DNA of 63,990 nt, filler included, from Jimgerdemannia flammicorona (taxonomy: Eukaryota): NCBI GenBank assembly GCA_003990765.1. It is 3 parts of 3 records of this genome, joined end to end, with 100 filler letters (N's around TTAATTAATTAA, not from the genome) between each part and the next. Parts side by side here need not be neighbours in the genome. Positions count along the whole stretch, not along the records: positions 43,212 to 63,990 come from RBNJ01001589.1; 2 more parts are not named here. One strand, written 5' to 3'. Within the stretch, counting starts at the first letter, position 1. Every line of letters begins with the position of its first letter. The notes beneath the pieces were generated by a model. It had not been told where the DNA came from and searched no databases. It saw only the letters and a list, made by a program, of their open reading frames with translations. A program made the position numbers and the translations under genes. This document shows, piece by piece, positions 3,754 to 59,251 of the stretch.

Positions 3754-3756
3754 TCT

Positions 3757-9900: not shown

Positions 9901-9959
9901 ACCTAGTACACTAGTGTAGGTAAAGTAAAAACTTGAAAACATGTTGTTTTTCGCAAAAA

Positions 9960-14612: not shown

Positions 14613-14754
14613 GCTGTACTATACTAGATTGTTCTTTTGCTTGGGTATCTTCTTGTTGGTTATTCATAGTGTTCCCTTTTCATTGCAATGTTCAGTATTA
14701 TATGTTTCTGGATAAGATATGTAGTATCCTTCTGCTTACTATATACTCCAATAC

Positions 14755-17700
14755 TTAAAGCTGTAGTTCCTTCCTTTGCTGGGGAGTGAGTGTTTCCATG
14801 TAGTCCTGGAGGGCTTTATATGCATTCTTCAGGGCTTCTTCTTTTTCCCAGATAGCATCATGGGTGGGGTAGCCCTTTCACTTGATCAGGAAAAACCACT
14901 TGACTGTTTTGGGATATTTGCGGACCTTGTGGTCAAGTACTTCCTCAATTTCGAATTCCTCATAATCATTGATCCTAATTGGGGGTAGTGGTGGAATTGT
15001 ATGCTCGGGGAATGGGTTCTCATGGTAGTCCACCAATTGGCTGATATGGAATATTGGGTATACTCAGATATTGTAGGGAAGTTGCAACTTGTAGTTGACT
15101 TTACTGATTTTTTCCATGATCTTGTATGGTCCAATTCTTCTAGCACAGAGTTTCTTGGCTGGTTGTTGTGCTAGAGTGTCTGGGTGGAGGTGGTCTGTTC
15201 TAAGCATGACTATGTCACCAATATTGTAGGAGGCTTCTCTTCACTTCAAGTTCACATACTTGGTCTGGTAGTCTTGTGCTTCTATGAGAGCATCTCTTGT
15301 CATTCAGGTAAGGTCAGAAATGGTCTCAGCCAGATCTTGGGCTGCTGGGACTGCTGATTTCACAGTAGTACTCAGAGTCCTTGGGTGTTGACTGTGGTTC
15401 AGGAAAAATGGAGTCTTCTTCATAGAGGTTTGCTGGCTGTTATTGTAGGCAAACTCGGCATAGGCTAGGTACTTGTCCCAATTATTTTGCTTGTAACAGC
15501 AAAAGATGCTAAGCATCTGTTTGAGAGTCCTGTTGGTTCACTCAGTTTGACCATTAGTCTGAGGGTGGTAGGTAGTAGAGAACTTCAGCTTGGTTCTATG
15601 GAGGGAGAAAAATGCCTTCCAGAAGTTGCTTATGAACTTGACATCTCAGTCAGATACAATAGTGCTAGGAATGTCATGTAGCCTGAATACTTGATTGAGG
15701 AAAATCTCAGCAATCTCTGGTGCTGTAGAAATGGTCTTAGTGGGTGCAAAATTGGCTTGTTTACTTAGGCAGTCCACGAATACCACAATGGCATCCCATC
15801 CTGCCTTGGTCTTGGAGAGTTGGACAATGAAGTCCATTGCAATCTGGTCCCAGTTGTGACTTGGGATAGGCAAGGGTTGCAGGAGTCCTGCTGGTAGCTT
15901 GTTACCACTTTTGAATCTTTGGCACATCTCACATGAGGCCACAAAGTCTTTAATGTCCTTGGTCATCTTTGGCCAGTAGAACTCTCTTGAGAGGAGGTTG
16001 TAGGTCTTTTCGAAACCAAAGTGTCCTGCTGCAGGAGTATCATGGAGTTTCTGCATAACCTTGAGTCACAGAGTATCATTGTTGGATACAACCACTCTGT
16101 CATGGTCCCTGTAGATAAGTCCATCATGATAGGTGAATTGCTTGGCCATTTGCCTTATGGCTTCTAGAACCTCGGCCTCTGGGTCTTAGCAGAATTGAAG
16201 AAATTTTGTCATGGGGCTGACTTGCTGGTAGCCTTCCTTGATCATCTGGGTGAGGTCTTCAATTACTTCGACCATAAAGACAAGTTCATCTTCTATGTAC
16301 CTAGAGAAACTATCAGCCACATAGTTGGTTTTGCCTGGGAGATACTTGATTTCCATATCAAAGTTGGCAATGATTTCCATCCAGCGGGCTTGTCTGTGGG
16401 TCAGCATGGGCTGTGTGTGAATATACCACAATGTATGGTGATCAGTATAGGCCACAAATGGCTATCCTAGGAGGAAATGGCGAGTGCAGTGACAATAGCC
16501 AGGAGTTCCTTCTCATGGGTGGTATTCTGGGTCTCAGCTGGCTTGAGTTTTTGGGAAAGGTAGGCCACTGGACAGTCTTCTTGGCTGAGTACTGCTCTAA
16601 TAGCAATGTCAGAGGCATCTGTAGTCAGAGTAAATAGTCTGGTAGGATCAGGTACAATTAGCACTGGGGCTTCAGTAAGGAGTCTCTTGAGATAGTCCAT
16701 AGCCAGGGTGCATTCAGGGGTCCATTCAGTTTTGATGTTTACTCCTTTGCAGGCCAGGCTGGTCAGTGGAGCTGCAATAGCAGAGTATCCTTGGATAAAC
16801 CTTTAGTAATAACTGGCAATACCCAGAAAGTGCTGGAGTAGCTTGAGGGTAGTAGGGATAGAGATATCCTTAAGGGCTAATACCTTTTGGGGGTCTATAT
16901 TGATACCTTCAGCAGAGATAATGTGTCCTAGATATTCAATCTGGTCTTGATAGAACTTGTATTTGCTCATCTTGGCATAGAGCTAGTGTTCTCATAGGAG
17001 AGTCAGTACCTGTCTGAGGTGGGTGTAGTGTAGCTCTACTGTCTCACTGTAGATTAGTATATTGTCAATATACACAAGGACACAGATGTTGAGAAGTGGT
17101 CCAGAGATATCATTCATCAGATACTGGAATGTTGCTGGTGCATTGGTCAATCCAAAAGGCATGACGCGGAACTGGTAGTGTCCAAACCATGTTTGGAAAG
17201 CTGTCTTCTCGATGTCCGTCTCATCAATAAGAATCTGGTGGTAGCCATTTCGCAAGTCTAGTAGAGAAAAGGTCTTGGCCTTGAAGATTTGGTGTAGTAA
17301 CTCATCAATCCTAGGCAAGGCATACCAGTTCTTGATAGTGATCTTGTTGAGGGCTCTGTAGTCAATACACATTTGCAGAGAGCCATCCTTCTTCTTGACA
17401 AATAGAATAGGGGCTCCAAATGGAGAGCAGCTGAATTCAATATATCCTTGGGCCAGTAGTTTGGTTAATTCATCCTTGAGGGTCTTGAGCTCAGGTTGGA
17501 CCAGTTGGTAGATACTCTTGTATGGGGGTTCAGATACTGGAATAAGATCAATTCCATGTTGGATTTAGCACTTGGGTAGAAGTCCTTGGGGGTCTTGGAA
17601 TACATCTTGAAATTCTTCGAACAGTTCTTGAGCTTCAGTTAGAATTGGGCTACTTGTAGTTTCAGTGACTTCTTGTACTATACAGATGAAGTAGGTGTTT

Positions 17701-20700
17701 CCCTTTTTTCGAGAGAGTCTCTTCATTTGAATGGCAGAGATGATTTCAATTCCTTGGTAGTTGGTACCTTGCTGGGGTGTCAGGGTGATCTTTCTACCTT
17801 TGTGGGTCAGGTTAACCTCATTGGTTCTCCAGTTGATATCTGGGTTGTGCTGGGTCAACCAGGCTTTTCCTAAGATAATATCTTGTCCTGGGAGGTCTAT
17901 AATGCTGAAATCCAACTTCTCTTGATATTTGCCAATCTTGAGCAAAAGATCTTTGCAGATCTTGGTCAATGGTGCAGTTTTTCCATCACCAAAGGTAACA
18001 CTTCTTTTCTCAGTGGCTGGTCTGCTTTGGGCTCCAATCCTCTTGGCAGTCTTGGTGCTGATGTAGTTTCCAGTAGCACCACTATCAAGCAAGACATTGA
18101 CATTCTGTCTGTGGACTTGGCCTGTGAACTTGATGCAACTGTCCTCCTTCTTGATGGTATTGAGCTCTTCATCTTCATTGTTGTTGTTCCAATTGCTGTC
18201 AGTCTCCTCAAAGTCAGTTTCTCCTCATCCTTCACAAAGAGGGTTGTCTTGTTTGGGTTCCTCAGTCTGTTGGGCTTGGCTTCTTTCAGCATTGATTTTG
18301 AAAACCTTGAAGAGGTATGCATGGCATTTGCTGATATATTCTATACAGTACATTCAAATGGAATGAGGGCATCATCCACATAGTGCATAACTATTTACAA
18401 TTCTCTTGTACCAGTTTTCATCATCTTCCTTTATGGTAGTGACCTTTTGACTGGGAGGTTTGTTGGTAGATCCAAACCCTTTCTTGCCACAGTCTGTTTG
18501 GGAGAGTCTGGGGACTTCTTCAATGGTGAGATCTTGACAGATTTCTTTGATGATTGCTTGGGCAATTCTTTGGTCTGTTTTGACTTCAAATGATGTGTCT
18601 CTAAAATTTCACAAGATGACATGGATTTCACTAGTAAATCCTTGGTCAACTACTCCTCCTCCTAGTCTAATGTTGAACTCTTTGGCTAGGCTGCTTTACT
18701 CAGCAAGGCAGATGTATGTTCCTTTGAGAGCTTGTATTGCAATTCCTATTCGCACTGTAGCATTGGTACTTGGTGGAATGGTGAGGTCTTGACTACTGTA
18801 GAGGTCATATCCAGCATCAGTTGGGTGGGCCTTAGTAGGGATGGTAGCCTTGTACCATATCTTCTGTACTTTGATGATATTCTCAGGGGTTTTTTTTCCT
18901 GGACCTTCTCTAATGATAGTAATGTTCTGGTTACTGGGTTTGCCTGTTCTGTTCTTCTTCTCAGGACATCTGAATGAGATATATCATGCCTTCTTGCAGA
19001 TGAAGCACAATCCATTTTCATGGAGCTGCTTCTTCTCATCCTCAGTAGGAGGTCTGGGTCCTCTGGGGTTTCGCTGGTTCCTTTGGTCATTCCTTTGATC
19101 ATTTCTCCTCATAGGATTTCTCCTATCTTGGTTATCCTTCTTGTGTTCTTGATTATGTGAAGCTTGTACAGCAAGGATTTCACAGGCTCTTCTTTATACT
19201 TGGGCAAAGCACTATGAGTAGTGGGGGCATCCTTGGGGAAGACTTTGTTCCTTGATCTTCTGGGTAAGCCAGTCTGGTAGGGCTGCAAAAAGGTGGTTGG
19301 CTCTGGTACCATTGATGGCCAAATTGTTTTCCTGGTAGGTAAGTCCAATGGTTTTAAGATAGGCATCTATTCTGGTAGCAAAGGTCTCTAGATCCTCTTC
19401 GCCATTCTTGTGGAACTTCATCTGGGACAGTTTGTTCCAAGTTTCTTGTATGTAGGCCACATTTCAGAATTTGGTCAGTAGCAAGGCCTTGAGTCCTGGG
19501 CCTGCTTCATGGTCATCCCAACCTGGTCTATTGTTGGCAGGTACTTGTCTATTGACTTGGGGGCAGGCTTCCCAGGTTACTGGGTGTTGTTCCAAGGTTT
19601 GTCAGAATTCAGCTGCTGTTCCAGTGAAGAATGTGGCCACTGTTTCTACTTGTACTGCTGATGTGGCAAACAGCTATTGAAGGGTGCTGTTCTGGTTGTT
19701 GGTGAGCATTCCTATAGGCACTCAGTTGTCATTCCATTGGTTTGCTCAGTAGCCTGTGTCAACTGCATTGATGAAGTTTTCAATGTCACTGTTTTTTCCA
19801 CTGAATGTTGGGATTTGCAAGGTCTTGGTTAGTTTGTTCTGTTCAGCAATCTGTCCTACTATCCCTGCTAGTACTGCTAGCTGGGTGGTCAGTGCTGTAA
19901 TATTGATATCTACCATTGTTTTGACTATTAGTGATGGGTCTGTTGGGGTAGATTCTCTAAAGATTATTCTACTTGGTGGGGTTGTGGTGCTGTATGACTT
20001 GAGGTTACTTGATTTCTGGATATTAAGTCAAAGAGTCCTGTGAGAGAGGATAAACCAAATCTCTATATAGGTGGCTGAGTTGGTTCTGGGGTCTGATCTT
20101 CTTGACTTGTAGTTCCTTGGTAAATTTCTAGGCCTGCTGTTCCTCATTGGCTATCATCAGACTGGTAACCTGTAGAGTCTTCATCTGACTCCCTTCCCTG
20201 ATGAGATAGTGCATTCCCATACTGACTAGGTCCTTCAAAGAGAATATCAGTCTCTGGCTGGGTAAATGGGCCTGCTTTTTGTTCAGCAGTAGGGGATGGT
20301 TGGCCTACTTGCTTGTTCTCATACCTAGTTATGGCAGAGGCATAGTATATAACTAGCCTATAGTAGAGGGAGGTCTTGGTTGGGGTATTATGATATCTGT
20401 CAGAGGCAATCCACTTGGCAGCTGCTTCTCTTGCAGCAGGGGGTGTGATATAATCTAGAAAATCCTAGGTGACTGCAGTAGTAGATTCTGGGGTCCTAGT
20501 GGTTCCAATGTGTCCTTGGAGGAGTTCGTAGAACCCATGGTGGCTAACAATATTCTTAAGTCCTGAGTGGTATATTCTAAAGGCCTGGTATAGATTCTTG
20601 TAAGCCTGGTCAATTACAAGCTAGTGGGTTCCTGTGTCTGTGGTTTCCTAGTACCACCTGGTTCTAATGGCAAGGGCTTCTCTGGCTCTGGTTTGGGAAT

Positions 20701-20807: not shown

Positions 20808-21490
20808 TGTAATAACTCTCACTTCTACCCCTCTCTTATTCTTTGGATAATTAGGGAAGTGGACTATTACTTAGAGACTTAGTACACAATGTGTACTGAG
20901 AAGCCTTCAGTTTGAGGAAGCACTCGCTTATAGTAGTTTGTAGTGGCAGTGCCTTCTGTTTCAAAAGTCTTTCTCTTGTGCCCTATTTTGAGGGTCTTGT
21001 TCCTTGCTGTGCATAGACTGAATTCACCTTGGAATTCAGGTTCAATGGATTTACTTAAGTCTTTGGGGATTCATATATGTACTAGTCTCAGTTCTGGCAG
21101 AAGTTAGCTAGGCTTCTGGAGTTTAGTCAGACACACTAGAGTCACTTAGGTATCATTACTAAGACTCAGGGGAATGTGTGTATGTGGGGGGGACTTGATT
21201 CTTATATCAAGGACTGAACTATAACTGCTTTATTTCGGATGAAAACTGGGGGGTATTTATACAAGTTGGTCCACAATTTCTGACTAAGTATGAGTAACTA
21301 ATTTGGTAACTATAGTGAGGTTTATAATTGCGACCTTTGTCAGGTGGTTTTTGGCAAAAATCACTTTGTGATCAAGACCTCAATTACTAGGCAATGATCA
21401 GCTGCTGTAGCAACAGTTGCTGTGGCACTGATTGTTGGAGATAAGCTGAATATTATTTTCTGCATCGTTTCACATCTTTCATCATTTGTC
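20808..21490 (-). repeat. G1 5' LTR (truncated at gap)
   Basis: Direct repeat of 12423 onward. Confidence 0.93.
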
Positions 21491-21507: not shown

Positions 21508-21607
21508 NNNNNNNNNNNNNNNNNNNNNNNNNNNNNNNNNNNNNNNNNNNNTTAATTAATTAANNNNNNNNNNNNNNNNNNNNNNNNNNNNNNNNNNNNN
21601 NNNNNNN
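21508..21607. other. Scaffold gap with artificial TTAATTAATTAA spacer
   Basis: 100 bp: N44 + 12-mer + N44. Confidence 0.98.
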
Positions 21608-22149: not shown

Positions 22150-22907
22150 GTAGCAAGAGTAATTTGTCTTCTTAATCTTTGAGCTTTATACTCTAGATAG
22201 ATATATATATTGATCTCTAGAATTATTTGTTCTCTTAGAGATAGTGTGTTTCTCTATAAAACTTCTTTTTTACTTCAAACTAGACCTAACTGACTTATAT
22301 CTTGAATATGTGGTCTTAATTTCTAGAGTAGTATATCCAATTGACTTATTTATATATTATTCTTAAGTTTTCTAGCTAGTAGTCATTTCATGGGTTCTCT
22401 ATGTTTTCTAGTAGTATTCTGATATTTTTCAGAGTAGTATTTCCTTACTTGGTAGTGGTAGTGAAATAGCAAGAGTGATTTGTCTTCTCAATCTCTAAGC
22501 TTTATACTCTAGATAGATATATTGATCTCTAGAATTATTTGTTCTCTTGGAGGCAGTGTGTTTCTCTATAATTCTTTTATTTCAAACTTCAACTAATTAA
22601 CTTATATCTTAAATATATAGTCTTGATTTCTGGGATAGTATATCTAATTGACTCATTCATACATTGTTCTTGAGTTTTCTAGCTGGTAGTCATTTTGCAG
22701 ATTCTCTATGTTTTCTAATAGTATTCTGATATTTTCTAGGATTGCATTTCCTTACTTGGTGGTGGTGGCAAAATAGCAAGAGTGATTTATCTTCTCAATC
22801 TCTAAGCTTCATACTCTAGATAGATATATTGATCTCTAGAATTATTTGTTTTCTTAAAGGCAGTATATTTCTCTATAATCCTTTTACTTCAAACTTCAAC
22901 TGACTGA
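22150..22907. repeat. Tandem repeat, ~2.5 copies of a ~307-316 bp unit, in a decayed TE remnant
   Basis: TAGCAAGAGT(G/A)ATTT(G/A)TCTTCT.. recurs at ~22151, ~22467 and ~22774. Confidence 0.85.
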
Positions 22908-24107: not shown

Positions 24108-25448
24108 TATGATAAACCAAGACATACTACTCAAATTATACCTTAGCTAGTTGATACAAACAATTAGCCAGATGACATGAATATACAGCATAGTAACTAG
24201 TAACCATTACTGTAGAAACTGTATAAATAGCCAGATTACCAGATAAGGTATATTTATATAGGACCTGTACACCTATATAGGATCTATACACCTATACAGA
24301 ACCTGCACAATCTGCTATAAGTAGCAAATCTATAGTTAGCCATGTAGCAACCAGATAGCAACTAACTTGTATAAATTACCCCAGAGATAAGAGTGAATAA
24401 ACCTCAGTCTAAAAGTTAAATACAAACCAAAAGCAAAAGTCAATTGTCTGGTATACTTAGGAGAAATGTCTGCCAAAAGCCACTTGATCCAGGAAGGATT
24501 GCAATACTTAGGAGATACACCTGCCAATGAACCATTGCTAAGAAGTTGTGAGCTTGGTTCTCTTCTCTTTCACTCTGGTCCACTTTCTGATACAAAGCTG
24601 ATTTTGCTACCAAGTTCGAGTGAAGAACTTTGCTACCTTTGGAATTATTGGTACACTTGCCAGATAAGCCTAAAGAATCTGAGTTTGCTGCCCAAGTCAA
24701 GGAAGAACTTCACTGCCATTTCCCAGTTAAAGCCACCAATTCAGGAAGAATTTGCACTATCTGAGTTAATTCTTAGTTAAGCCACCATTTTCAAGAAGTT
24801 CACTGATTCAGGAAGAATCCATATCATCTGCTGTTTTCAAGTTATCTGCCATATTTCCAGTTGAAGCCACCATTTTCAAGTTGTCTGCATTCCCAGAGAA
24901 CCCATACTGTCTGATTTATTATTCCCAGAGAACTCAATTCATACTGTCTGAGTTGTTCATTGTTCCCAGTGAGCCAAATTAAGTTATCTACCAGAAATTG
25001 CATACTTTTGGAGATTGTCATGCAGAGATTGCCATTACCCAAGAAGGAAAACTGCTAAATTGACTGACTGTCACCCCACGCTACACAAGAGATCATCATG
25101 CCAGAAATTGCATACTTTTAGAGATTGCCTTGCTATACAAAATTGTGGCATTCCCAGTTGACCTAAATAAGGAATCCATCATGCTACACATGAATTCTAC
25201 CAATTCTCAGTTGACCTAAGAAGGAAACTCATTCACATAAATTGCCATCATATCCAGAGAACTATCTTAATAAGGAAATCACCAGAATCACTTACAGATA
25301 TCCAGCTTTGACTATTATACCACTAAACACCAAGAACCTTAGAAATTATTGAACATTTTGTTGCTTTTGACAAAGTAACTGAGGGCTCAAGCCAAACTAC
25401 ATCAACCCCCAACCTTATAATTTGTCTCCATTGAGCTGGCACATTACA
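24108..25448 (+). repeat. G2 5' LTR (~1341 bp, internally repetitive)
   Basis: TATGATAAACC (mutated TGTGACAAACC)...ACATTACA; direct repeat of 33642-34929. Confidence 0.93.
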
Positions 25449-28400: not shown

Positions 28401-29164
28401 CAGAAGAAGGACCCAGTACAATCACCATTATCTCTAAGAAAGAAACTTATCAAGAAAAGGCTTTTTGACTAGGAAGATGTCTACACCAAATAATCTTCTA
28501 CTCCCCCCAAGACTACTACTATCAGTGCCACTTACTAGATCAATAGGAAAGACAGAGACCCCAGAGACCAGAATCTCTGAACATACTTGCACAGTCAACT
28601 ACCTTTCAAGAAATTACCACCAAGTTGCAAAGCCAATTCAGGGGACAAGGCTTCTTCACCCAGACAGAAATATATCTCTTATCTACTCTTCTACCCACCT
28701 ATGACTAAGATGGGTACCATTTCCCAAGACAACAAGAAATCAATAACTAGGAACATCATTTCTGAGCAATGAGATATTGCAACCATGGAAGACACCCAGA
28801 CTGCCAAGACTACAGGCATCAGAAGATCCATCTCAGTCATGATGTTGCAGTCTATACCTTAAAGAGAGGAGATAACCAAAGTCAGATCTGAAAAAGTCAG
28901 ACTAAAAAGCCAGAAAGAAGGACCCTCAAGATTTACAATTTAGGTGAAGACATCCTAGCTCTTATCAGACATGCAACCTGCCAAGGATGGGCAGAAGATG
29001 CCACCAACTTCATGGAAGCCCTTGACCCTACAGGAAGAAGGAGAATCAACTATCTCTGAGATCCCTCTACTAGAGCCAGATGGCCACACCTCAATCTTAG
29101 AGCTTGGAGACTCTCTGCTAGTGGAGCCTCAGCCTTAAGAAAGCCTGAACTCAGTAAGGATATC

Positions 29165-29572
29165 ACCCAGTATGCTCTGCTCCACCCCAAGGCCAAACCC
29201 CTAACCAAAGCCCACCCAGAGGATATAGGATATGATCTTCACAGCCTGGAGGACAAATCTATCAAGCCTGAAAAAACCTTTATGATCAGAACTGGATTAG
29301 CCATGCAGCCACCCCAAGGAGCTTACATCCAACTGACCTCAAGGTCCGGACTTGCCAGACAAGGAATAACTATGGAAGGAGAAACCATTGACCCAGGATA
29401 TACAGGCAAAATTAAGATCATCCTACACAACAGCAGTGCAGAATGGTACTGAATCATTAGAAGACAGAAGATTACCCAAGCAGTTTTCATGAAAGTCAAG
29501 ACCTTATAGTTACAAGAAGTCTCTGAACTAACTGAAGAAATAAGACAAGTTAAGGGATTTGGAAGTTCAGAT
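29165..29572 (+). pseudogene. dUTPase domain in G2 (between protease and RT)
   Basis: DIGYDL, SRSGLA, TIDPGYTGKI, KITQ, RQVKGFGSS. Confidence 0.9.
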
Positions 29573-33641: not shown

Positions 33642-34929
33642 TGTGACAAACCAAGACATACCACCCAAATTATACCTTAGCTAGATGACATGAACAATTA
33701 GTCAGATGATGTGAATACACAGTATAGTAACTAGCAATCATTTCTACAGAAACTATATAAATAGCCAGATTACTAGATAAGGTATATCTGTATAGGATCT
33801 GTACACCTATACAAGACCTATACACCTGTACAGGACCTGCACAACCTGCCATAAGTAGCAAATCTATAGTTAGCCATGTAGCAACCAGATAGCAACCAAC
33901 TTGTATAAATTACCCCAGATAAAAGTGAATAAACCTCAGTCTGAAAGTTGAATACAAACCAAAGCAAAAGTCAATTGTCTGGTATACTTAGGAGAAATGC
34001 CTGCCAATGAGCTACTGCTAAGAAGTTGTGAGCTTAGTTCTCTTCTCTTTCACTCTGGTCCACTTTTCAATATAAAGCTGATTTTGCCACCAAGTTCGAG
34101 TAAAGAACTTTACCACCTTTGGAACTATTGGTACACTTGCCAGGTAAGCTTGAAGAATCCAAGTTTGCCACCCATGTTCAAGAAAGAACTTCACTGCCAT
34201 TTCTCAGTTGAAGCTGCTGATTCAGGAAGAATTCATGCCATCTGAGTTAATTCCCAGTTAAGCCACCATTTTCAAGAAGTTTTCTAATTCAGAAAGAATC
34301 TGCATCATATGCCATTTTCAAGTTATCCACCATATTCCCAATTGAAGCTACCATTTTCAAGTTGTCTGCATTCTCAGAGAACTCATGCCACCTGAGTTAT
34401 TATTTCCAGAAGAACCTGATTCGCATTGTCCGAGTTGTTCATTGTTCCCAGTGAGCCAAATCAAGTTATCTGCCAGAAATCACATACTTTTGGAGATTGT
34501 CATGTAGAGATCACTGTCACTCAAGAAGGAAAACTGCTAAATTAACTGACTATCACTCCATGCTACACAAGAGATTATCATGTCAGAAATTGCATACTTT
34601 TGGAGATTGCCTCACTATACAAAATTGTAGTATTCCCAGTTGATCTGAATAAGGAACTCATCATGCTATATATGAATTCTACCAATTCTCAGTTGACCCA
34701 AGAAGGAAACTCATTCATACAAATTACTGCTACACTCAGAGAACTGTCCCAATAAAGAAATCGCCAGAATTGCTCATAGATATTCAGCTTTGACTATTAT
34801 ACCACTAAACACTAAGGACCTCAGGAATTATAGAACATTTTGTTACTTTTGACAAAGTAACTAGGGCTCAAGCCAAACTACATCAACTCCCAACCTTGTA
34901 ATTTGCCTCCATTGAGCTAGTATATTATA
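33642..34929 (+). repeat. G2 3' LTR (~1288 bp)
   Basis: TGTGACAAACC...ATATTATA (mutated CA end). Confidence 0.93.
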
Positions 34930-35229
34930 ATATCTTAAGGGTCTGCTCCTTCAGTCTAGAGTATAAGGTCACCTGACTTGAGTAGTATACTGCTGAAGTC
35001 ATTATGAGTCATTATGAGTTTAGTTGCAGATCATCTTATGATCAAGATGAGTCATAGTTGAGTCATAACTTGTAACTGGTGGCTTGCTAAGTCTAAGCAG
35101 TCCTCAGATTCTGATGTCACTAGTTTCAAAGATATTGTTTCATCTGCTTCTTGCAAAATTAGAGCCATCTTTAGCAGTTGTAGTTATACAGAAATAGCAG
35201 GTCTTAGTTTTTTTTTTTTTTAGGCTTTT

Positions 35230-35479
35230 GATATATTTGTGAGAACTGGCCATTCTTGTCTAAGACAAGGGCTCTCATTGTCATGGCTGGGGTTTTGAAC
35301 CTCTTAGAAATAGTATTTCCTATAATCTGAGACAATTTCTAGTAGCTTATCATCTATTATATGGATGGACTTAAGACTGGTTTCAACATTATTAGCTTTC
35401 TTGAGTTCCAAATAAAGTGTTTATTATTCTTCAACAGAGATGACACAGATTAGGTAATCAGAATTATTTAATGTATTTT
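35230..35479 (+). ncRNA. Candidate structured ncRNA, copy 2 (antisense to G5)
   Basis: Collinear nucleotide similarity and near-identical length to 14364-14612; more decayed. Confidence 0.55.
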
Positions 35480-43111: not shown

Positions 43112-43211
43112 NNNNNNNNNNNNNNNNNNNNNNNNNNNNNNNNNNNNNNNNNNNNTTAATTAATTAANNNNNNNNNNNNNNNNNNNNNNNNNNNNNNNNN
43201 NNNNNNNNNNN
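43112..43211. other. Scaffold gap with artificial TTAATTAATTAA spacer
   Basis: 100 bp N/12-mer/N. Confidence 0.98.
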
Positions 43212-49170: not shown

Positions 49171-50149
49171 CCATCACAAAATTTTCTAATTGGGTATTGT
49201 CTGCAGCAATATGCCAATTCAACTAAGCTGGTCTTAGTTTCTTGAACTTCCTGAAATATAGAAAATTCTGAACATCCAGAACTAGTCCAAAAAAGGACTT
49301 TGGTTGAGACGTCAACCTGAACTTAAAATCAAAAAGCATAGAGGATGTACTCCATATGAAATTGATCTTGACCATAAGAAAATGGTCTTCTAGAACATCC
49401 AGAACTTCCGGAAAAACCTTCCAGAACTACATAATGGTTACCCTAAAAAGCAACCCTCTTATATTATTGATATAGACAAAGAGCTATTTTCCAATCTTAT
49501 TACTGAAGACTCTATTCATCATTTACTGAAAACTTGTTGGGGCATTATATATTCCAAATGGTATTTATAGGTACATCAGATATAATAAAGGCTGATTTCT
49601 CACTAGTATCTTGAGTGAGATCAATCTGATAGAAGTCTGAGAACAGATCTAAGGTAGTATAGTATTTGGCTTTGCTTCCAAGAGTGGTAAGGATTTCTTG
49701 AATATTTGACAAGAGCTATCTATCTTTCTTGGTAATTGTATTGAGCTTTCTGTAATCAATGTAGAGTCTTGGGGCAAACTCTCTAGACTTGCTTCCTTTC
49801 TTTAGAGCAAGGACAATGGGTGAAGCCTAGGGGCTGATAGCTTGCTTGATGATTCCAGCTTTTTTTATTTCCTTGAGTTCTGCTCACAGCTATTCTCTGT
49901 AGGCAGGTAGTATAGGTCTGGCTTTCTGGTAGATAGACTTGATATTGCTGGTGTCAACTTCATAGTAATACTTGGGTTCTTAATTATGAATATCCCTGAA
50001 GTCTATGGTAAGTACTCCTTCATTCTGGTGCAGGATCTTGAGAAGTTGTTCTTTTAGAAAAAAGTTTTCTCTAATAATATATGTGTACTTGTTCTGATTC
50101 TTATCTTTCTTATACTCAAGTTTGGTAATCTTGGTGGCAGTATAGACTC

Positions 50150-50570
50150 CTCTTCCAGTAGATCCAAAGTCTTGTTCTCTTCTTTTAGTCTTGATGAGTT
50201 CAATGGCTTCAGTGATCTTGGACTTCTTGACTTTATAAATCAGCATCTGGCCAATTCTGTCATACTTCTTGACTTTGAATAGAGTGGTAAAGTTGTGATT
50301 CCTGACTATGAGGAAGATCTTATCAGTATAATCAGAGTCAATTACTCCTCCTTTAACTGAGATTTCACTTTTGGCTAGACTGCTCCTGGTCTTAATGATT
50401 CTGGTATAGTTCTCTGGTAACTTGACTCCAATTTCAGTACCAAGTAGAGTGGTGATCTGTGGTTCAAGAATAGTATCTTGAATACTGGCAAGGTCTATTT
50501 CTATGGTTTCTTCAGTCTTGTATTCTGGGATCTTGGCTTTAGGGTGAAACTTCTTAACCTTAAGAGTAGT
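50150..50570 (-). pseudogene. dUTPase domain in G6 (between protease and RT)
   Basis: EIDL, TRSSLA, GGVIDSDYTDKI, DRIGQ, RREQDFGSTG. Confidence 0.85.
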
Positions 50571-50779
50571 GTCTAGTTCTTGTTCCTTCTCATCATTACT
50601 ATTAGCTTGAAGCTCTGGGGGCTGGTCATCTTCTTCAGCTTCTCTTTTTGCTTCAGCAGCTTATTGCTCAAACTTTTGTTAGTAGATTTTCCTAACTTTA
50701 CTGATACAGAACTAGCAGCCATTCAGGTGTTTAGAGTAGTATATTCTAATACTATGGGGGCATCTTCCTTGAGAGATAT

Positions 50780-51182
50780 TGTAATGGTTCTAGTTTCTAA
50801 ATGAGGAAGTAACTAATTCTGATAGTTCTAAGTAGCTCGAAGAGATACTAAGGATTCAAGTATTCTCAAAGGATTTCTGAGAGAAAATATTCTGAGACTT
50901 TATTCATGAGAACAAAGGGGATATTTATACAAGATCTGAAAGAAGGATCTGGAAGGATCTGAGAAATCAAAGGAAAATGCTAAGAGGAAAGTTCTTGGCA
51001 AAGATGACAAATGATGACAAATAAAGTTCTACAAGTTTCCAGGACAATCAGTGACTAACTAAATAAGTACTAGAGGAGGCTCAGTGCCAAGAAAGGATTT
51101 CTAAGCATTTGGAAAGTACTAGAAGGTTGTAGAATATTGAAGAAAGACAAAGAAAAGAAATAAACTATGCTAAAATGTTACA
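50780..51182 (-). repeat. G3 3' LTR (403 bp)
   Basis: TGTAATGG...TGTTACA; repeat of 56146-56558. Confidence 0.95.
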
Positions 51183-51276
51183 TCTCCCCCTCCTTAAAAA
51201 TCAATGTCCTCATTGAATTCTCAAAGTTACACAAAATAAACAATAAGACTAAAAGAAACTTCAAATTAAATATATT

Positions 51277-51512
51277 GACTCATTGGCAAGAATTGGCTGT
51301 CCTTGTATAAGGTGAGGGCCAAAGTATCATCTTGATCAGATGAGAACTGGTTCGAACCTCGTTAGTTGTAGGATTTATAGAGTTCTCCTGTATCTCTTGC
51401 TTCTGATGCTGTATCCCTTAGAGAGCCCTGATGCGTAATGTGCCTGATCAGTACAGTAGGTCATCTACTATTCAAGAGGAGAACCTCATGGGCAGTCAAT
51501 AAGTTCCTTTTT
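51277..51512 (+). ncRNA. Candidate structured Pol III-type ncRNA, copy 3 (antisense to G3, divergent)
   Basis: A-box TGGCAAGAATTGG 51284-51296; perfect B-box GGTTCGAACC 51349-51358; TATTGACT/AGTCAATA terminal pairing; TTTTT 51508-51512. Confidence 0.62.
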
Positions 51513-54500
51513 GTTTGAACTCTTAGATGAGGTCTTGGGAGTTCTTGAGATTGGCGGCAGGTTCCCAGATAGTGTCATATTCAGAGTAACCCATCCACTT
51601 GACTAGGTATTCTGTGCAATGGTATCAGACTCGTTTGTCTAAGATTTTCTTGACTTCATACTCAATGTGGTCTTCAACTATGACTAGTGCTGATGGTGTT
51701 GAAATTCGGCCAGGGTATGGGGGTGACTGGTTCCAGGCCTTGAGTTGTGACATATGGAATACTGGGTGTATATACATAGTTGTTGGCAAGTTGAGATAGT
51801 AAGCCTAGGTAGAGACTTGCTCAGTGATCTTGAAGGGTCCAAGGTACTTGGGCTGGAATTTGGCTGACTGGCAGTTGACTTGAGATTGAGCCTTGATATT
51901 GTCAGCTTTGAGTAGAACCATATCACCAATGTTGTATATGACATCTCACCACTTCTTATCTGCATACTTAGCTTAATGTTGCTGAGCCTTTTGCAGATTT
52001 GTAGTGGTGATCTTGAAAAGGGAATCTATTTTATCAATAAGGTTCTGAGCTGTAGGGACTTGAGTGTAACTGGATTGCTGGAATTAGACTAGACTTGCAG
52101 GGGTCTCAGGATTTTGACCATAAAGTAGCTGAAATGGGGAAAGACCAGTTGATGATTAGTTGGTAGTGTTGTAGGTGAACTCAGTGTAGGTCAGATAGTG
52201 GTCCCAATCATCTTACTCATAAGACATATAGTTTCTGAGCATTTGTTCAAGTGTTCTGTTCATTTGCTCTGTCTGTCTATCAGTTTGAGAATGAAAGGCA
52301 GTGGACATAGCAATTTGGGTTCCAAGGGTCTTGAAGAGTGCTTGCCAGAAGTGACTTGTGAACTTGGGGTCATGGTTACTGATAATTACTTGGGGAAGTC
52401 CATAATGGCAGAAGACAGTCTTGAAGAAGATTCTTGTAATTTCTGGGATAGTGGTATTAGTTGTGGTTGGCTCGGCAATTGTAATCTTGGTGAGATGGTC
52501 CACAAACACAACAATGGCATCATAGCCTGTTTTGGTTCATGGAAGTTGCACAATGAAGTCCATTGTAACTTGTTTGAACTTCTTGATCAGAATTGACAAG
52601 GGTTGTAGAAGACCGGCAGGTGCTTGGTTACTTGACTTATTTCTTTGGCAAAGATCACAGCTTTGGACATACTCCTTGATTTCCTTGAGCATATTTGGCC
52701 AGTAATAGTCTCATTGGATATTCTTGATGGTCTTCTCAGTTCCAAGGTGGCCAGCTAGTGGGGAGTCATGGTATTCATGAAGAATCTTGTACCATAGTTC
52801 AGGGTTGGCAGAAATATATACTTTGTCTTAATAGTACATGAGGTTGTCTTTGATGGTGTACTTTTTCTTGAATTTCTTGGTGTTCCTTTGTAGAACCAGA
52901 GAGTCTTGTTCGTATATCTTCTTGATCTGGTTGAGGAATTCAGGTGACATGGTGACTTGTAAAATCGTGGCAAGGTCAGGTCTCCTTGAAAGTATATCTG
53001 GTACAACTAGAGTTTTGCCAGGCTTGTAGATGATGTTTGGAGTAAAAGTCTGAAGTAGTTGGCTCCACTTGGCTTGTTGGCAAGAAAGGGTTGGTTGAGT
53101 GTTGATGTACTGAAGGGACCTGTGATCAGTGATCATGTTGAACTCAACTCCTTCTAGATAGTGTCACTAGATCTTGAGGGCATGCATGATTGCCAGGAGT
53201 TCCTTTTCATGAGTAGCCAGCTTTTGTTCTGCTGGGGACAATTTTCTTAACTCAAAGGCAATAGATTGGTGTCCTTGACCATCATCTTGAGAAATGACTG
53301 CACTAATGGCAAAGTTAGATGCATCTGTAGTGACCATGAACTTCAAGTTTAGGTCCATGTTTCTAAGATCAGTGAGGTTTGCTGGTATAGGCCACTGTTC
53401 AATGGCTTGTATTTTTCTTGGATCTACTTGAATTCCTTTGGCTGATATAATGTGTCCAAGGTATTTGACTTGATCCTTGAAAAATTCACATTTCTTGAGC
53501 TTTGCATAGAGCTTGTTCTCATGGAGGATCTTGAGGACTTGTTCGATGTGCTTGAGGTATTCTTCTTCAGTGCTACTGAAGATCAGGATGTCATCAATAT
53601 ATATAAGTATGAAGATATAGAGCTGATCCTTGAAGACAGTTTGCATGAGGTCTTGAAAGGTTGCTGGTGCATTGGTGAGACCAAAGGCCATGACTAGAAA
53701 TTCGTAGAGTCCAAAGGGTATCATGAAGGCAGTCTTGGGTATGTCTTCTGGCTTGATTCGAATTTGGTGATATCCAGAGGTGAGATCAATCTTGGTGAAG
53801 TACTTGGCATTCTTGAGAGTATCAAAGATTTGATCTATGAGCAGTAGCAGATAATGGTTCTTAACTGTGATCTTGTTGAGTACATGGTAGTCTATGCACA
53901 TTCACAGAGTATCATCCTTTTTCTTGACAAATAGGACTGGGGAGCCAAAGAGTGACTTGCTTGGTTGAATGGCTCCTCACTCAATGAGTTCATTGAGTTC
54001 CTTCTTGACTGTTTCAATTTCGAGTGAAGACATGTGGTACATTTTCTTCTTAGGTATAGCTGTATTAGGTACCACTTGATTTCATAGTCATGGTCTCTTG
54101 AAGGTGGTAGACCAGGTAGTTTGTCCAGAAAGACATCCTTGTACTTGTTCAGCAGTAACTTGACACTTTCACTAATTGATAGCTTCTTGTCTTCTTTCTT
54201 TGGTCAGATCAGTGCCACAAAGGCACAGGTAGCTTTCTTGAGGGCCTTCTTGAACTGGATTGCTGAGAGGGTAGCAATTGGGGTTCTCATCTGAGTCTTG
54301 TCTAGCTTGATGGTAATGTTGGCTCCATCCTGAATCAAGGTGACTTCATTCTTGGTCCAATCAATCTGAGGGTTGTGTCATATAAGCCAGGGTTTGCCTA
54401 GGATCAGGTCATGGTCTCCTAGTGGTGCTACTTCGAAATCTAAATGTTCCCAGTACTTCTGGATCTTGAGGGGAAGTTTAGTGGCAATTGAGTCAATTGG

Positions 54501-56077
54501 TAAGGTGGTGTCATCTGTAGTGACAACTCCACCATTCTTGCCAGCTGGTTTGGTGAGAATCTTGAGCTTATTGATGAGATTCTTGTTGATGAAGTTCCCA
54601 ACAGCTCCACTGTCTATGAGAACATCTAGCTCTTGTTCCTTGACTAGACCTTTGAAGATGAGCATTGAATTGGCTCAGTTCTCAGCTATACTTGCAACTT
54701 TGTCAGTACTGCCAAAGCCTTTCTGATCTCACTTAGTAAAAGACAGCTTGGTGACTTCTTTGACAACTGGTAGGGTGACTCACTCCAGAATGAGCTGTAC
54801 AATTCTATCTCCTTCATTGATGATATATGGCTGGTTCTTGTGGTTGACTAGCAGAACTTGCATTTTACCTCAGAAGTCAGGGTTAATAACTCCAGCACCA
54901 ATATCTAATGAGTACTTGAAACTGAGGCCAGATCTTGGTGCAATTCTTGCATAATGTTCCTTGGGGATTTTGACTGAAAGGCCAGTTGGAATGAGCCTTC
55001 TCTCATGTACTGGAATAGTGACTTGTTGTACTGCTTGAAGGTCCAAACCAATGGCTCCTTCTGACTGTACTTGAGGGATCTGGGCCTTGGAGTTAACTTG
55101 CATGAAATTGAGTACCGCTTCTTGTTCAACTGGTTGACCTTGGGTGTCTTTGGACAGGACCAGGATCCTCTTTGGTTCAGCAGTTTTCTTGGGACATTTG
55201 GTTGCAATGTGACCAAGCTGATGACAAAAGGAGCAGGCTCCAGCCTTCTTGAGGTGCTCCTTTTCCTTGGGTGTAAGCTTGCCTTTCTTACTCTTGTCGA
55301 TGGTGTCTAGGTCCATGGGGGCAGGTCCAACAGTTCTGACTTTGGGTTCCTCCCTTCTGTGGTTGTTGTTGTTGAAAGGCAGTCTCTTCTGTTTGAAGCG
55401 ATGACCATAGGTAATGACATCAAACTTATCAGCAATTTTCATTGCTGTATCTAGGTCCTTGGGTTCTTCTAGTTTAACATGAACTTGGGTTTGACCTTTC
55501 AGGCCTCGGATGTACTTGTTGACCTTCTCATCTTTAGTGACATGTGGTAATTCTAGCAGGATTGACAGAAATTGTGCATTGTATACTTGCACAGACTTGA
55601 GTTGTTTGACATTTGCCAGATGGTCTCATACAGTCTTGGTGCTGTTGACTGGTTTGAATTGGCCTTGAATAGCATCAGAGAATTCACTCCAGGTCTTGAT
55701 TTGGCCAGAGAATCTGGTATTCTGGATATGATTTTACCTCCATATTGCTCTAATTGGAAAAGCCAGGCATCAGTAGACAGTCCTCCTCTTTGACCATCAA
55801 AGGTGTCAGGCTTCTGAGGCTTGATAGTGACTGCTGTCAGATGTATTGATGTTGGTGGAGGTATAGAGATATGAGCGGGGGCCTTGCTTTTCTTTCTTTC
55901 TATATATTCTTGAAGTTGAGCAATCTGAGCTAATGCAGTCTGCAAAAGACTCTCGATGGCCCCATTCAACTGAGTAGGGTTTTGCTGTTCCTCTTCTTCT
56001 TGCTGATTGTACTGATTGTATGAGGCATTGCCTGGAATGTAGGTACTGTATGAAGGGTTCCACCTGTTGTCCTCCAT
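51497..56077 (-). pseudogene. G3 gag-dUTPase-PR-RT-RH-IN-chromodomain
   Basis: KPDTFDG; CSFCHQLGHIATKC; dUTPase GLDL, PRSGLS, AGVINPDF, KGFGST (~54705-55105); LIDSGAVGNF; YIDDIL; TTDAS; chromodomain EYEVKKIL..YLVKWMGY..IWEP. Confidence 0.93.
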
Positions 56078-56145
56078 AGTGTTGTGACTGATATCTTGAG
56101 AGGTGTCTTGATAAGGCTAGGTGTAACTTCACTGCTGCTATCAAG

Positions 56146-56558
56146 TATAATGGTTCTAGTTTCTAAATGAGGAAGCAACTAATTCTGGTAGTCCTAAATA
56201 GCTCGAAGAGATACTAAGGATTCAAGTGTTCTCAAAGGATTTCTGAGAGAAAATATTCTGAGACTTTATTCATGAGAATAAAGGGGATATTTATACAAGA
56301 TCTGAAAGAAGGATCTGGAAGGATCTGGAAGGATCTGAGAAATCAAAGGAAAATGCCAAGAGAAAAGTTCTCAGCAAAGATGACAAATGATAACAAATAA
56401 AGTTCTACAAGTTTCCAGAACAATCAGTGACTAACTAAATAAGTACTAGAGGAGGCTCGGTACCAAGAAAGGATTTCTAAGCATTCGGAAAGTACCAGAA
56501 GGTTGTAGAATATTGAAGAAAGACAAAGAAAAGAAATAAACTATGCTAAAATGTTACA
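56146..56558 (-). repeat. G3 5' LTR (413 bp)
   Basis: Repeat of 50780-51182 with one extra GGATCTGGAA unit. Confidence 0.95.
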
Positions 56559-59251
56559 GATATAGCTATCAATGATATTGTTATACTACTGCTCATCTAT
56601 GAGCTTAGGTGTCTTGCTCTTGTTCTTGTATACTGAGTATATAAAGACTTCTGTATCTTCTTCATCTCCTTCCTCCATATCTGATAGTACTCCTTTGTGG
56701 ACATTAATAGAGACTTATATCTTTCTTCTTCTATAGTTGATCTGTATCTTCTGAGTATTGAGATCAATGACAGTTTTGGCCTTATGAAGTCATTGATTGC
56801 CAATGAGGATGTTATAGTTAGTGATACTTATAACAATCACATCTACTAGAATGGTATTGATGGGGACTTCTCAGATCTTGTCTAGAGGGATAGCTTATAT
56901 ACTATCTGCTATAATGTAGACCATTTTGGTAGACTCTTCAATGTTCCAGCCTAGGTAGTCAATTGTCTTCTTACTTATGAGATATCCTCTAGCACTAGTA
57001 TCAATGATAGCATTAAAGCTACAATCTTCAATCTGACATAGGGTATAGGCTGATGTCTTATGCTGGTCTTCAGATTTTTTGTCTAAGTCTTCTTATTTAT
57101 CTCCTTGTACATTGTGAACTTCTATGATCTTGTACTCTTAGTTCTTGACAGTGGTTGCAAGTCCTACTCTCAACTGCTGTCTGAAGGCAGAGACTTTAGC
57201 TAGTTGTTCAAAAGTAGCATTGACCTTCTGTTCCTTGAGATCCTTATAGATATCATACTGGTGGATCTTAGTCTTGCACAGCTTCTGTTCTTTCTTACTT
57301 TCACTTTCTCCTGAGACTGGAGTAGTGTCTTTAATAATTTGGCAGATAGCTTCATCTAACTCTATGTCTTGATCAATCTCCTCAGATTGGGTCTTACTTT
57401 GAATAGTAACAGCTGGGGTCTTCTTTGATCTTCCAACTAGCTTGTTACTCTTCTTGTTATAGGGCTTGGACCAGATTCTGGTATCTTCAGTAACAGGGCA
57501 GAATTCAGACTCTTTGTAGTATTCTTCATCATTAGTATCACCAATCTCCTCAATGACTACTGCATTGATTTGTTCTCTAGTTCTGGTAGTATTGCTTAGT
57601 TGGGCTTTGCATCTTGTTTTGGTTATACAACTTTTTGCATAGTGGCCTTCTTCTCTATATTTGAAGTATATAATATTGCATTCTTCTATAGTAACTGCAA
57701 ATCTCTGTACTAGTCTCCTATTGGTATTTCAGACTTCTCTAACAACATCACTAAGGTATGCAGTCATCTTGGTAAACTGCTTGGTGAGTTCCTCCACTGG
57801 ATCAGCTTTAACTATCTTGGGAATAGGTGGAGATAGTTGTCTATTTACAACTATAGTGGGTATTATACTGATTGACTTTGATGGCTCTATCTTGATACCA
57901 GTTATTTTCTCTATTGAGTGTTTGGTAGAGTGTCTGACAGTCCAATATCTCTATGCAAAGATCACTTTCTGGTCAAGAGTCAGAGCAGCTGGGGTAGACT
58001 GGATTGCTAAGGCAATTTCAGGGTGAACTCCTTTGAGGAAGGTTGAATCAGCTATTTATTCCTTAAGAGCATCATCATAATCAGCCAAGACAATCTAGTG
58101 GTAGATTCAGGTATAGAATGAGTTGGGATCTTTACTGAGTCTCTGGCAGATAGTGTTGAGTTGATTCTTGAGAGCTTACTTGATCTCTTCAGTATAGTAT
58201 GTAGTTCTGAGGAAGGTCTTTATATTGGCAAGTTTGGCTGCACCAGTATCAGCAATAGTGGCTATATTGAACTTGTCTCTAGCAGGTCCTCTGAGACTGA
58301 CTGATAGAAGGGCCAATTGTATATCTATGATGAGGGCTCATATAGTAGTAAATTGTTTAAAGTCTTCAATAAAGGTTAGGATTAACACTTTAGTAGTATA
58401 TCTATAGAATGTAGAGGGACACATTTCCATCTTATCTTGAATTCTTGCAGAGGTGACTTTTGTAGTCAGAGTAGTTGTTGTAGTAGTTGTTTGTTTTTCA
58501 GCTTGAAAGTGAGGGATTTATCTTGAATCACCAGCCAATGGGTACCAAGTTGTCACATAGTAGTCACTGAGTTCTTCAAATATATCAGATTCTCTCTAAG
58601 GTATATCTCTTAGACTAATCACAAGTTTGTTATAAGCAAGTTCTTATTGAAGTATCTTCTCAAGATCTTATAGTCCTCAAACTTCTTATCTTTAAACTAT
58701 TTTGTTATCTCTTAGATTTCTTGTATGAAATTGAGTGTAAGTGAACTGGAACTAACTTTATTTTAAAGAAAATAAGAGGGGTATTTATATAAAATATAAT
58801 TCAATGATTGCTATATTATAAAGCTAAATATAAATTCCAATAACCAAATAAAATACTGGAATACAGAAAACTACAGTTGTAAGTACAAGTTCAAGTATCT
58901 GTATAAATAGTTGTACAAGTTTAGAATATCAGTAGATTTCAGTGGTACAGAAAAAAGATATCAGAAGAATTTCTGAGTTATACAAGATCAGAATGCCAGA
59001 AGAATAATAGTTACACAGAAAAAGGATACTAGTAGAATTCAGTCTTACCAAGAACTTAGAGCAGAAAGTTCAGGACTATAGAGGCTTTATCTTTATCACT
59101 ATCATTAAGGCCAGAGATCAGAGACAGAATGTCTTCAAAGGAGATGAGGTCTGCAAATATTTTGTCCATTTCACATATATTGTACATTTCATATATTTTG
59201 CATATATCATATAGAATGATGTCATCATTGATGATATTATTGCAGATGACA

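Follow-up and report, generated by a model that had tools for sequence, protein, structure and literature searches.

The interval 51277-51512 of the window (the whole stretch of 63,990 nucleotides (nt) of Jimgerdemannia flammicorona DNA analysed here) lies near the 3' end of G3, a complete minus-strand Ty3/gypsy chromovirus with a dUTPase domain, recognised from its pair of long terminal repeats (LTRs), primer-binding site (PBS), polypurine tract (PPT), target duplication and Pfam matches. An earlier note on this DNA had read the interval as the divergent third copy of a non-coding RNA (ncRNA) in which selection would have preserved a structure rather than a sequence. We find that the interval is the 3' non-coding spacer of G3, not a separate gene, and that what it shares with related elements appears to be a short block conserved in sequence. 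The window itself is a nest of Ty3/gypsy elements with a G+C content of 43%, and no intact element copy was found in it. The parts of G3 around the interval, including the remnant of a third open reading frame (ORF3), are:

50780..56558, minus strand: G3, with gag, dUTPase, protease, reverse transcriptase (RT), RNase H, integrase and chromodomain; Pfam domains on the minus strand
50780..51182, minus strand: 3' LTR of G3, from the repeat pair and the LTR ends as read
51183..51195, minus strand: PPT of G3, AAGGAGGGGGAGA, immediately 5' of the LTR start TGTAAC
51192..51220, minus strand: remnant of the ORF3 C-terminus and block conserved in the related element G1, TCAATRAGGACATTGATTTYTAAGG; EFNEDIDF and a stop, against LNFQVNKDIDF and a stop in G1; 23/25 identical
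51494..51525, minus strand: end of pol; stop TAA at 51525-51523, where the related metagenome locus L002 has CAA and continues for 6 codons (QEFEQK and a stop)
56132..56143, minus strand: PBS of G3, TGATAGCAGCAG, read from sequence
56146-56558, minus strand: 5' LTR of G3, from the repeat pair and the LTR ends as read

The LTR pair, PBS, PPT, target duplication, domain order and C-terminal chromodomain place G3 among the Ty3/gypsy chromoviruses. Repeats of ~400 bp (50782-51182 and 56148-56558) are 93.7% identical and enclose the minus-strand ORFs, which follow the order gag/capsid, dUTPase, protease, RT, RNase H and integrase. Read on the minus strand, the LTRs start with TGTAAC and end with ATTACA (TG...CA ends), and a 5-bp target duplication, ATATC, is found on both sides (50775-50779 and 56559-56563). 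G3 is therefore complete yet decayed. Agreement between its PBS and that of G1 (TGGTAGCAGCAG) is limited to 12 nt. The pol gene terminates in the chromodomain (...YLVKWMGYSEYDTIWEPAANLKNSQDLI and the stop), which was read from the motif ...YLVKWMGY...WEP and aligned with those of G1, of another window element (G4) and of two metagenome loci (L001 and L002). The interval makes up nearly the entire spacer from the pol stop to the PPT; it is not a gene of its own. At the far end of the spacer, TCAATGAGGACATTGATTTTTAAGG of G3 and TCAATAAGGACATTGATTTCTAAGG of G1, read side by side, are identical at 23/25 positions; in G1 this stretch codes for the end of ORF3 (...NKDIDF and a stop) and then enters the PPT, and the last ~8 ORF3 codons survive in G3 beside the PPT. 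That G3 has no ORF3, as the earlier note had said, is confirmed. Because the ORF3-end/PPT block matches G1 and the conserved core of the spacer is retained, G3 is a derivative without ORF3, a relative from which nearly all of ORF3 has been deleted with both flanks kept. Its spacer shares an ancestral spacer with the pol-ORF3 spacers of G1 and G2.

G1 lies on the minus strand (LTRs 12423-13128 and 20808-21486) and runs from the pol stop (~14758) through the segment in question (14581-14310) and ORF3 (14088-13252, a single frame with 2 stops) to the PPT. The segment of G2 (35176-35450), 77% identical to that of G1, lies downstream of an integrase remnant (36087-35848) and is parted from an ORF3 remnant (23925-23521) by a nested plus-strand element with 1.3-kb LTRs. 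The latter is a gypsy element whose LTRs (24110-25446 and 33644-34927) are 83.6% identical. Frames of the ORF3 family are found 3' of pol at 14088-13252, 59883-59287 and 23925-23521 (all on the minus strand; 33-36% identical by tblastn); the single piece scanned gave no Pfam match, and the G1 frame has no start codon at its head.

Position and orientation (antisense to pol) are the same in G1, G2 and G3, as had been proposed. The contention that the copies share structure rather than sequence falls, since they are related by sequence: BLAST aligns the cores of G1 and G3 at 77.8% identity over 45 nt (E 1.25e-4), MAFFT aligns a core of ~90 nt across the three elements, a profile built from the three copies with nhmmer matches exactly those three places in the window, and a five-way alignment joins them to L001 and L002. 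G3 resembles the other two copies by sequence, not by fold. The metagenome loci, 80 in all, come from a scan with protein alignment of integrase-chromodomain ends; the close relatives among them are L001 and L002 alone, and both contigs end within the spacer. The homologue set thus consists of three full copies (G1, G2 and G3) and two partial relatives. L002 belongs to the G3 family, matching 52443-51380 at 85.8% identity over 1064 nt. In L001 the pol resembles that of G1 (72% amino-acid and 77% nucleotide identity) and stops at 714; the 357 nt of spacer that follow are cut off before the hairpin core. Outside the core, the spacers of all five are weakly homologous in patches, for instance:

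51444..51476, minus strand: patch CTTGAATAGTAGATGAC...; homology with L001 at 82% over 33 nt (E 0.002), weaker with G1 and G2

This patch is common to G3, L002 and L001 and recognisable in G1 and G2 in the five-way alignment of sense strands, and L001 combines its G1-like pol with a patch nearer to G3. Since sequence homology to the other lineages, though weak, extends beyond the core, there is no need for stems there to have been replaced, as the earlier note had supposed.

The conserved part of the spacer consists of three arms and a quasi-palindrome, which in G3 are separated by a stretch of its own:

51287..51318, plus strand: three-arm core CAAGAA / TCCTTG / TGAGGG, arms 13 nt apart; G1 copy 14374-14405, G2 copy 35240-35271
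51319..51343, plus strand: stretch without counterpart in G1 or G2, with the outer arm GCCAA and the hairpin TCATCT-TGATC-AGATGA; not conserved in L001
51349..51358, no strand assigned: perfect palindrome GGTTCGAACC, with quasi-palindromic relatives in G1, G2 and L001

The arms read CAAGGA, TCCTTG and CAAGGG in G1 and TGAGAA, TTCTTG and CAAGGG in G2; in G3 the first arm is CAAGAA, but most copies of its family have CAAGGA (51291 G). The three-arm pattern has three matches in the window against 0.01 expected, with the pattern having been derived from these same copies. Pairing of the middle arm is possible with the arm on either side, so that two mutually exclusive hairpins with 7-nt loops can form. 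The quasi-palindrome follows ~30-45 nt beyond the arms (GGTTCGAACC in G3, GAGTTTGAACCTC in G1 and, on the sense strand, GGGCTTGAACCC in L001), and the core itself lies outside the LTR, ~90-170 nt 5' of the PPT. Between G1 and G3 the core has 78% identity, which rises with the family-majority letters 51291G, 51293C and 51299A. The best pol stretches of the two elements reach 66-77% nucleotide identity, their integrase/chromodomain proteins are 33-42% identical, and no similarity was found between their LTRs. This comparison of the core with pol and the proteins argues for constraint on the core, and constraint on something in the segment is supported by the alignments. Selection has held the short block, i.e.: arms and quasi-palindrome, and not a 236-nt fold.

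Contigs of four sequencing runs show the G3 family to be abundant and varied, with differences that are mostly transitions, and the core is covered in 4/4 runs. Other copies of the family read 51291 G, 51293 C, 51298 C, 51299 A, 51472 C and 51477 G. Among the differences listed (40 of 285 differing places), the four best supported in 51273-51362 comprise three in the loop between arms 1 and 2 and one that restores arm 1.

The spacer does not behave as a coding sequence. The frame leading from pol to ORF3 in G1 is broken by 12 stops over the ~222 codons of the spacer, whereas ORF3, with 279 codons, has 2; differences between the G1 and G2 spacers show no phase bias (43/37/39); and the longest frames through the core (31-56 amino acids, aa) shift between copies. 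These stops, phases and shifting frames rule out a protein-coding spacer, whether as a small ORF or as a leader of ORF3. Antisense frames in L001 (825-1070, minus strand, 81 aa) and L002 (852-1076, minus strand, 74 aa) are open to the contig ends, and are probably chance ORFs because the frames differ over homologous bases. After the patch CTTGAATAGTAGATGAC, which has stops in three frames, an ATG opens a short basic ORF beginning MTY in G3 (51464-51378, minus strand, 29 aa) and in L001 (~920-995, plus strand, 24 aa), with an ATG and 7 codons as its G1 counterpart; it may be a small upstream ORF or due to chance. Between G3 and L002 the differences in pol fall 37/15/72 by codon position, and this third-position bias indicates that pol was under purifying selection and that the G3 family stayed active. 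In the spacer 26/145 positions differ (phases 12/4/10; chi-square ~4, p ~0.13, calculated by hand). Since this proportion is close to that of third positions in pol (72/306), the half of the spacer covered by L002 is at most weakly constrained.

The motifs from which the ncRNA had been built are all there as strings: GACTCAT (51277-83) followed by TGGCAAGAATTGG (51284-96), the 30-nt hairpin string (51293-51322), TCATCT-TGATC-AGATGA (51327-43), the perfect palindrome, the run TTTTT (51508-12) and the two long pairings:

51382..51484, plus strand: large domain, closed by GTTCTCCT (51382-89) and AGGAGAAC (51477-84)
51273..51280, plus strand: 5' arm of the terminal pairing, TATTGACT, with its partner AGTCAATA at 51494-51501

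None of them clearly exceeds chance: palindrome, 8-bp stems and minimum free energy (MFE) are all matched by shuffled sequences. The palindrome has one match in the window against 0.69 expected and occurs at least once in 52/100 shuffles; of 2000 dinucleotide shuffles, 117 contain two perfect stems of at least 8 bp and 647 contain at least one. The MFE of the whole interval is -70.1 kcal/mol on the plus strand (z -1.56; 14/200 shuffles as good) and -56.3 kcal/mol on the minus strand (z -0.91; 38/200), so that the fold is no more stable than those of shuffles on either strand, and the plus-strand MFE structure does not contain the helix GTTCTCCT/AGGAGAAC. In L002 the arms of this closing helix are GTTCTTCT and AAGAAAAC, i.e.: three one-sided transitions among 8 pairs, which leave 2 mismatches and 1 wobble on the plus strand and 1 mismatch and 2 wobbles on the minus strand. 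No compensatory pair change is seen in the large domain among the available copies. The terminal arm AGTCAATA and the T run lie in or at the region where the pol frame of L002 continues, and the run is the complement of pol-tail codons in intact relatives. Pairing profiles of G1 and G3 over the whole interval are no closer than those of shuffles (plus strand, z -0.45, 11/40 as close; minus strand, z -0.35, 15/40), nor are they outside the core on the minus strand (z +0.36, 25/40). With a fold at the level of shuffles, a closing helix damaged in L002 and no compensatory change, the idea that selection kept an RNA fold while its stems were replaced is not supported. The hairpin said to be the same in all copies is so in part: its inner arms are shared, whereas the outer TTGGC/GCCAA stem is built from 10 nt that G1 and G2 do not have, and the full string has no second match in the window within 3 mismatches. 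The small hairpins are worth -5.9 to -9.9 kcal/mol, with z-scores of the core from +0.32 to -1.87.

The spacer carries a lineage-specific, non-coding and strongly conserved block between pol and ORF3/PPT that was kept after the loss of ORF3. The explanation we favour, to which we give about the same credence as to all else together, is that this block serves the retrotransposon itself as a cis-acting signal. Arms of the form CAAGGA / TCCTTG / CAAGGG, 13 nt apart, would form either of two small, mutually exclusive hairpins, and a quasi-palindrome like GGTTCGAACC some 30-45 nt further on would be the second part of the block. It might be recognised by proteins of the element or of the host, through its sequence or its small hairpins and in either the genomic RNA or the DNA, and could serve RNA handling, packaging or reverse transcription. 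The remaining interval would be fast-evolving filler, and its long helices the chance yield of a 240-nt sequence. Because the G3 family kept the core without ORF3 and became abundant, the block would be needed with or without ORF3.

Several observations weigh against a cis-acting signal read as a short block. The proposed role draws on where the block lies, how well it is conserved and its survival of the loss of ORF3. Pairing counts over the three copies lean to the other strand: the second hairpin (arms 2-3) is paired in 18/18 cells on the plus (antisense) strand and in 12/18 on the minus (sense) strand, and these counts appear to fit an antisense RNA better than a sense-strand signal. The core is absent from 78/80 related metagenome loci (26-41% identity), and the window elements G4, G5 and the nested plus-strand element have no core above shuffles, with the 3' ends of G4 and G5 truncated or heavily decayed; owing to these absences the core is to be taken as lineage-specific, and not as a general requirement of chromoviruses. 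On the side of the fold, stems of at least 6 bp are slightly enriched in the interval (10 against a mean of 6.0; 32/500 shuffles as high), and the G1-G3 profile distance outside the core is low on the plus strand (z -1.83; 1/40 shuffles as close), which is one marginal result in four tests, obtained on already homologous sequences. With only three full copies and two partial relatives, the power of covariation is almost nil.

The antisense strand is where the rivals of a cis-acting signal begin. In the form given by the earlier note, a tRNA-like ncRNA of ~235 nt would be transcribed by RNA polymerase III (Pol III) from the plus strand, antisense to pol, with its fold kept, its stems replaced and its end at TTTTT; we hold this to be very unlikely. 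The A-box-like TGGCAAGAATTGG and the perfect GGTTCGAACC lie 65 nt apart in G3 with the T run downstream, small hairpins pair better on the plus strand, and the marginal profile likeness is on that strand too. The consensus sequences are TRGCNNAGTGG for the A box and GGTTCGANNCC for the B box. Against the latter, on the plus and minus strands respectively, G3 has 1 and 1 mismatches, L001 0-1 and 2, G1 3 and 1-2, and G2 3 and 0-1. The plus strand of L001, GGTTCAAGCCC, fits the consensus, but G1 and G2 share a plus-strand change of the critical C of TTC and fit better on the minus strand, so that across G3, L001, G1 and G2 the motif is consistent on neither. The A expected after TRGCNN is missing in all three copies (TGGCAAGAATTGG in G3 and TTGCAAGGACTGG in G1 have G for this invariant A and lack AGTGG), and the A-like and B-like motifs are 47 nt (G1) and 65 nt (G3) apart. 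Rfam at E<=10 gave 3 weak unrelated matches each for 51150-51560 and 14250-14780, with no tRNA and no ribozyme on either strand, and no match at gathering score over the whole window; ARAGORN found 0 tRNAs in the window, a weak test, since it also missed a tRNA-like gene in locus L040. The tRNA-like reading does not survive these searches, the more so as the fold equals shuffles, the closing helix is broken in L002, the T run and 3' terminal arm lie inside the pol tail of intact relatives, and the part outside the core is homologous by sequence and not replaced. Pol III promoters do exist in LTR retrotransposons (Cassandra, Helenus and Ajax; PMC10886601). An antisense RNA need not be a Pol III product, and could start, e.g., in the 3' LTR and regulate the element through the core as a two-state hairpin. 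Antisense transcripts regulate some LTR retrotransposons. We regard this as unlikely, but since the pairing counts lean to the antisense strand it is the main rival. To the 18/18 cells of the second hairpin the first (arms 1-2) adds 17/18 on the plus strand against 16/18 on the minus, with one two-sided change (G-C to A-U in G2), and 5/6 one-sided arm transitions preserve plus-strand pairing; among the family differences listed, the arms are invariant and the variation is in the loop. On the other hand, 5/6 is expected by chance in ~1/9 cases, the hairpins have little stability (-9 to -10 kcal/mol, equalled by 120, 18 and 24 of 200 shuffles), and with three sequences the pair-count controls are uninformative (318/500 shuffles score as high as the two-sided change, and 500/500 in the other control). 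The fuller claim, that arms and quasi-palindrome form a two-state antisense RNA hairpin switch selected in diverged chromovirus lineages, we consider more doubtful still.

A second group of rivals leaves the block on the sense strand or gives it up. By analogy with the bipartite PBS of Ty3, the sense core might pair with arms of the primer tRNA and join the genome ends, as an accessory primer-tRNA site. Ty3 has its two PBS parts ~4800 nt from each other, and tRNAiMet pairs with 3' sequences through its T and D arms (PMC5371799). The short 5' PBS common to G1 and G3 (12 nt) agrees with this model, which also predicts the T-loop-like palindrome and the tRNA-like look of the antisense strand. Yet the core lies upstream of the PPT and outside the LTR, not in U3 as in a Ty3-type site; the motif varies between lineages that share one PBS; the antisense strand matches no tRNA model; and there is no direct 5'-3' complementarity above shuffles, for the longest stems between core and 5' leader, 9 nt, are reached by 135/200 shuffles in G3 and 95/200 in G1. 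At this chance level for contiguous stems in G3 and G1, a Ty1-type 5'-3' cyclisation pair is rejected as well. The chances of an accessory tRNA site seem small to us, and we would rate as equally slim those of a control region of ORF3 (internal promoter, splice acceptor or translation start region), left over in G3. The core is directly upstream of ORF3 in G1 and G2, at ~270 nt in G1, and its spaced arms would suit the half-sites of a DNA-binding protein. However, the G3 family keeps the core without ORF3, is abundant in 4/4 runs and has its pol under purifying selection; no conserved branch point or acceptor was seen by eye in the five-way alignment; and the ORF3-bearing G5 (59883-59287), very decayed, has no detectable core upstream. 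It is most improbable, lastly, that the block has no function and owes its likeness to a recent exchange of 3' ends between lineages or to slow neutral decay. LTR retroelements recombine readily, and the G1-like pol of L001 next to a spacer patch nearer to G3 hints at mosaic 3' ends, but recent exchange would leave long uniform tracts, whereas here the likeness is limited to short patches in unalignable sequence; G1 and G3 LTRs have no similarity, and the G3-L002 spacer is near the neutral rate (26/145 against 72/306) with the core fixed.

The sequence GGTTCRAAC occurs in 2/80 metagenome loci, about the chance level, and the occurrence in L040 belongs to a flanking tRNA-like gene. This gene (4400-4470) contains GGTTCGAACC, lies ~1 kb downstream of the pol of a distant chromovirus, is ARAGORN-negative and possibly has an intron.

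As far as it could be tested, the block shares the defining features of none of the known kinds with which we compared it. Closest in place are the CTE of Mason-Pfizer monkey virus, the RTE of IAP and the MTE of MusD, RNA elements of simple retroviruses and LTR retrotransposons that act in cis from a position between the last ORF and the 3' LTR. Like them, the block follows pol or the last ORF, precedes PPT and 3' LTR, is non-coding and conserved within a lineage, and has repeated or inverted sub-motifs. They are sense-RNA folds of 100-400 nt with a demonstrated export function, whereas the block is conserved over ~85 nt, its fold is unsupported, it has no sequence likeness to them and its hairpins are better on the antisense strand. 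Ty3, with its bipartite PBS, is of the same family (Metaviridae) and likewise has a short 5' PBS and, towards the 3' end, a non-coding segment with a relation to tRNA arms, but its site is in U3, downstream of the PPT (PMC5371799). CYC5 and CYC3 of Ty1 are 5'-3' cyclisation sequences; they too involve a short conserved non-coding sequence just 5' of the PPT region, acting in reverse transcription, and differ in that here the complementarity of core and 5' leader is not above shuffles in G3 and G1. TRIMp3 are LTR retrotransposons with Pol III promoters (Cassandra from 5S, Helenus from tRNA, Ajax from 5S), and offer a small-RNA-like sequence with look-alikes of Pol III boxes in an LTR retrotransposon, Helenus being reported from fungi; theirs, however, are LTR sequences of small, non-autonomous elements, sense-oriented and recognisably derived from tRNA or 5S (PMC10886601). 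The G3 segment is internal, antisense, in autonomous elements and without a match to tRNA models.

The core pattern had no match in metagenome contigs or viral contigs; a looser pattern had 2 matches in bacterial metagenome-assembled genomes, by pattern only, where we estimate ~1 by chance. The RT protein of G3 had no match in viral contigs. No account of this spacer block was found in the full-text literature searched, whose coverage leaves out subscription journals. Conserved 3' non-coding signals of LTR retrotransposons have so far been described in few model elements (e.g. Ty1, Ty3 and murine IAP/MusD), and a block of ~85 nt that is tighter than any pol stretch between anciently diverged, probably fungal chromoviruses would offer both a handle on the cis needs of these elements and a marker of their lineage. 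If the two-state switch were true, it would be an element-encoded antisense regulatory RNA that outlived the loss of ORF3. The case also shows that, in a spacer of 240 nt, long helices, a B-box-like palindrome and a T run do not amount to evidence of an RNA gene, and that an argument from structure without sequence can fall away once relatives are aligned.

Pfam domains on the window elements are RT, RNase H, integrase, protease and Ty3 capsid, plus dUTPase on several. A dUTPase domain, rare in Ty3/gypsy, separates gag from protease in at least four gypsy elements of the window (Pfam E 1e-8 to 2e-22):

18699-18983, minus strand: dUTPase domain (Pfam)
29060-29449, plus strand: dUTPase domain (Pfam)
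49983-50660, minus strand: dUTPase domain (Pfam)
54873-55625, minus strand: dUTPase domain (Pfam)

Chromoviruses bearing dUTPase are known from basidiomycetes and Tuber (Postia, Phanerochaete and Tuber; PMC2864245). They resemble the window elements in being gypsy elements with chromodomain and dUTPase and, in some, an extra ORF without assigned function; they differ in that the accessible part of that account gives no conserved spacer element.

Parts of the window are matched by metagenome runs from soil, root and rhizosphere. Together with the dUTPase-bearing chromoviruses known from fungi, these matches point to a fungus as the probable host. In one run (X20, taken as RNA only by guess), the final ~100 nt of the G3 LTR (50747-50887, the U5 end) reach a summed contig depth of 2,500-18,000, against at most 170 on the remaining examined stretch outside it. 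Runs of 44 N's (n=4; 21508-21607 and 43112-43211) interrupt the sequence, one of them in the 5' LTR of G1 and one in the 5' part of the plus-strand element G4. Between G1 and the ORF3 remnant of G2 lies a tandem duplication (22151-22901) with units of ~310-440 bp, 86% identical. A large inverted pair (4-5854 and 43111-37256), 79.6% identical over 5.9 kb, is a non-LTR-type element with RVT_1 matches and no further Pfam domain. Both G1 (~14880) and G4 (46924) have a stop at the conserved tryptophan codon of the chromodomain (K-stop-KGYP, against KWKGYP in L001). These shared tryptophan stops and the excess of transitions fit a C-to-T decay by methylation or by a process like repeat-induced point mutation (RIP).

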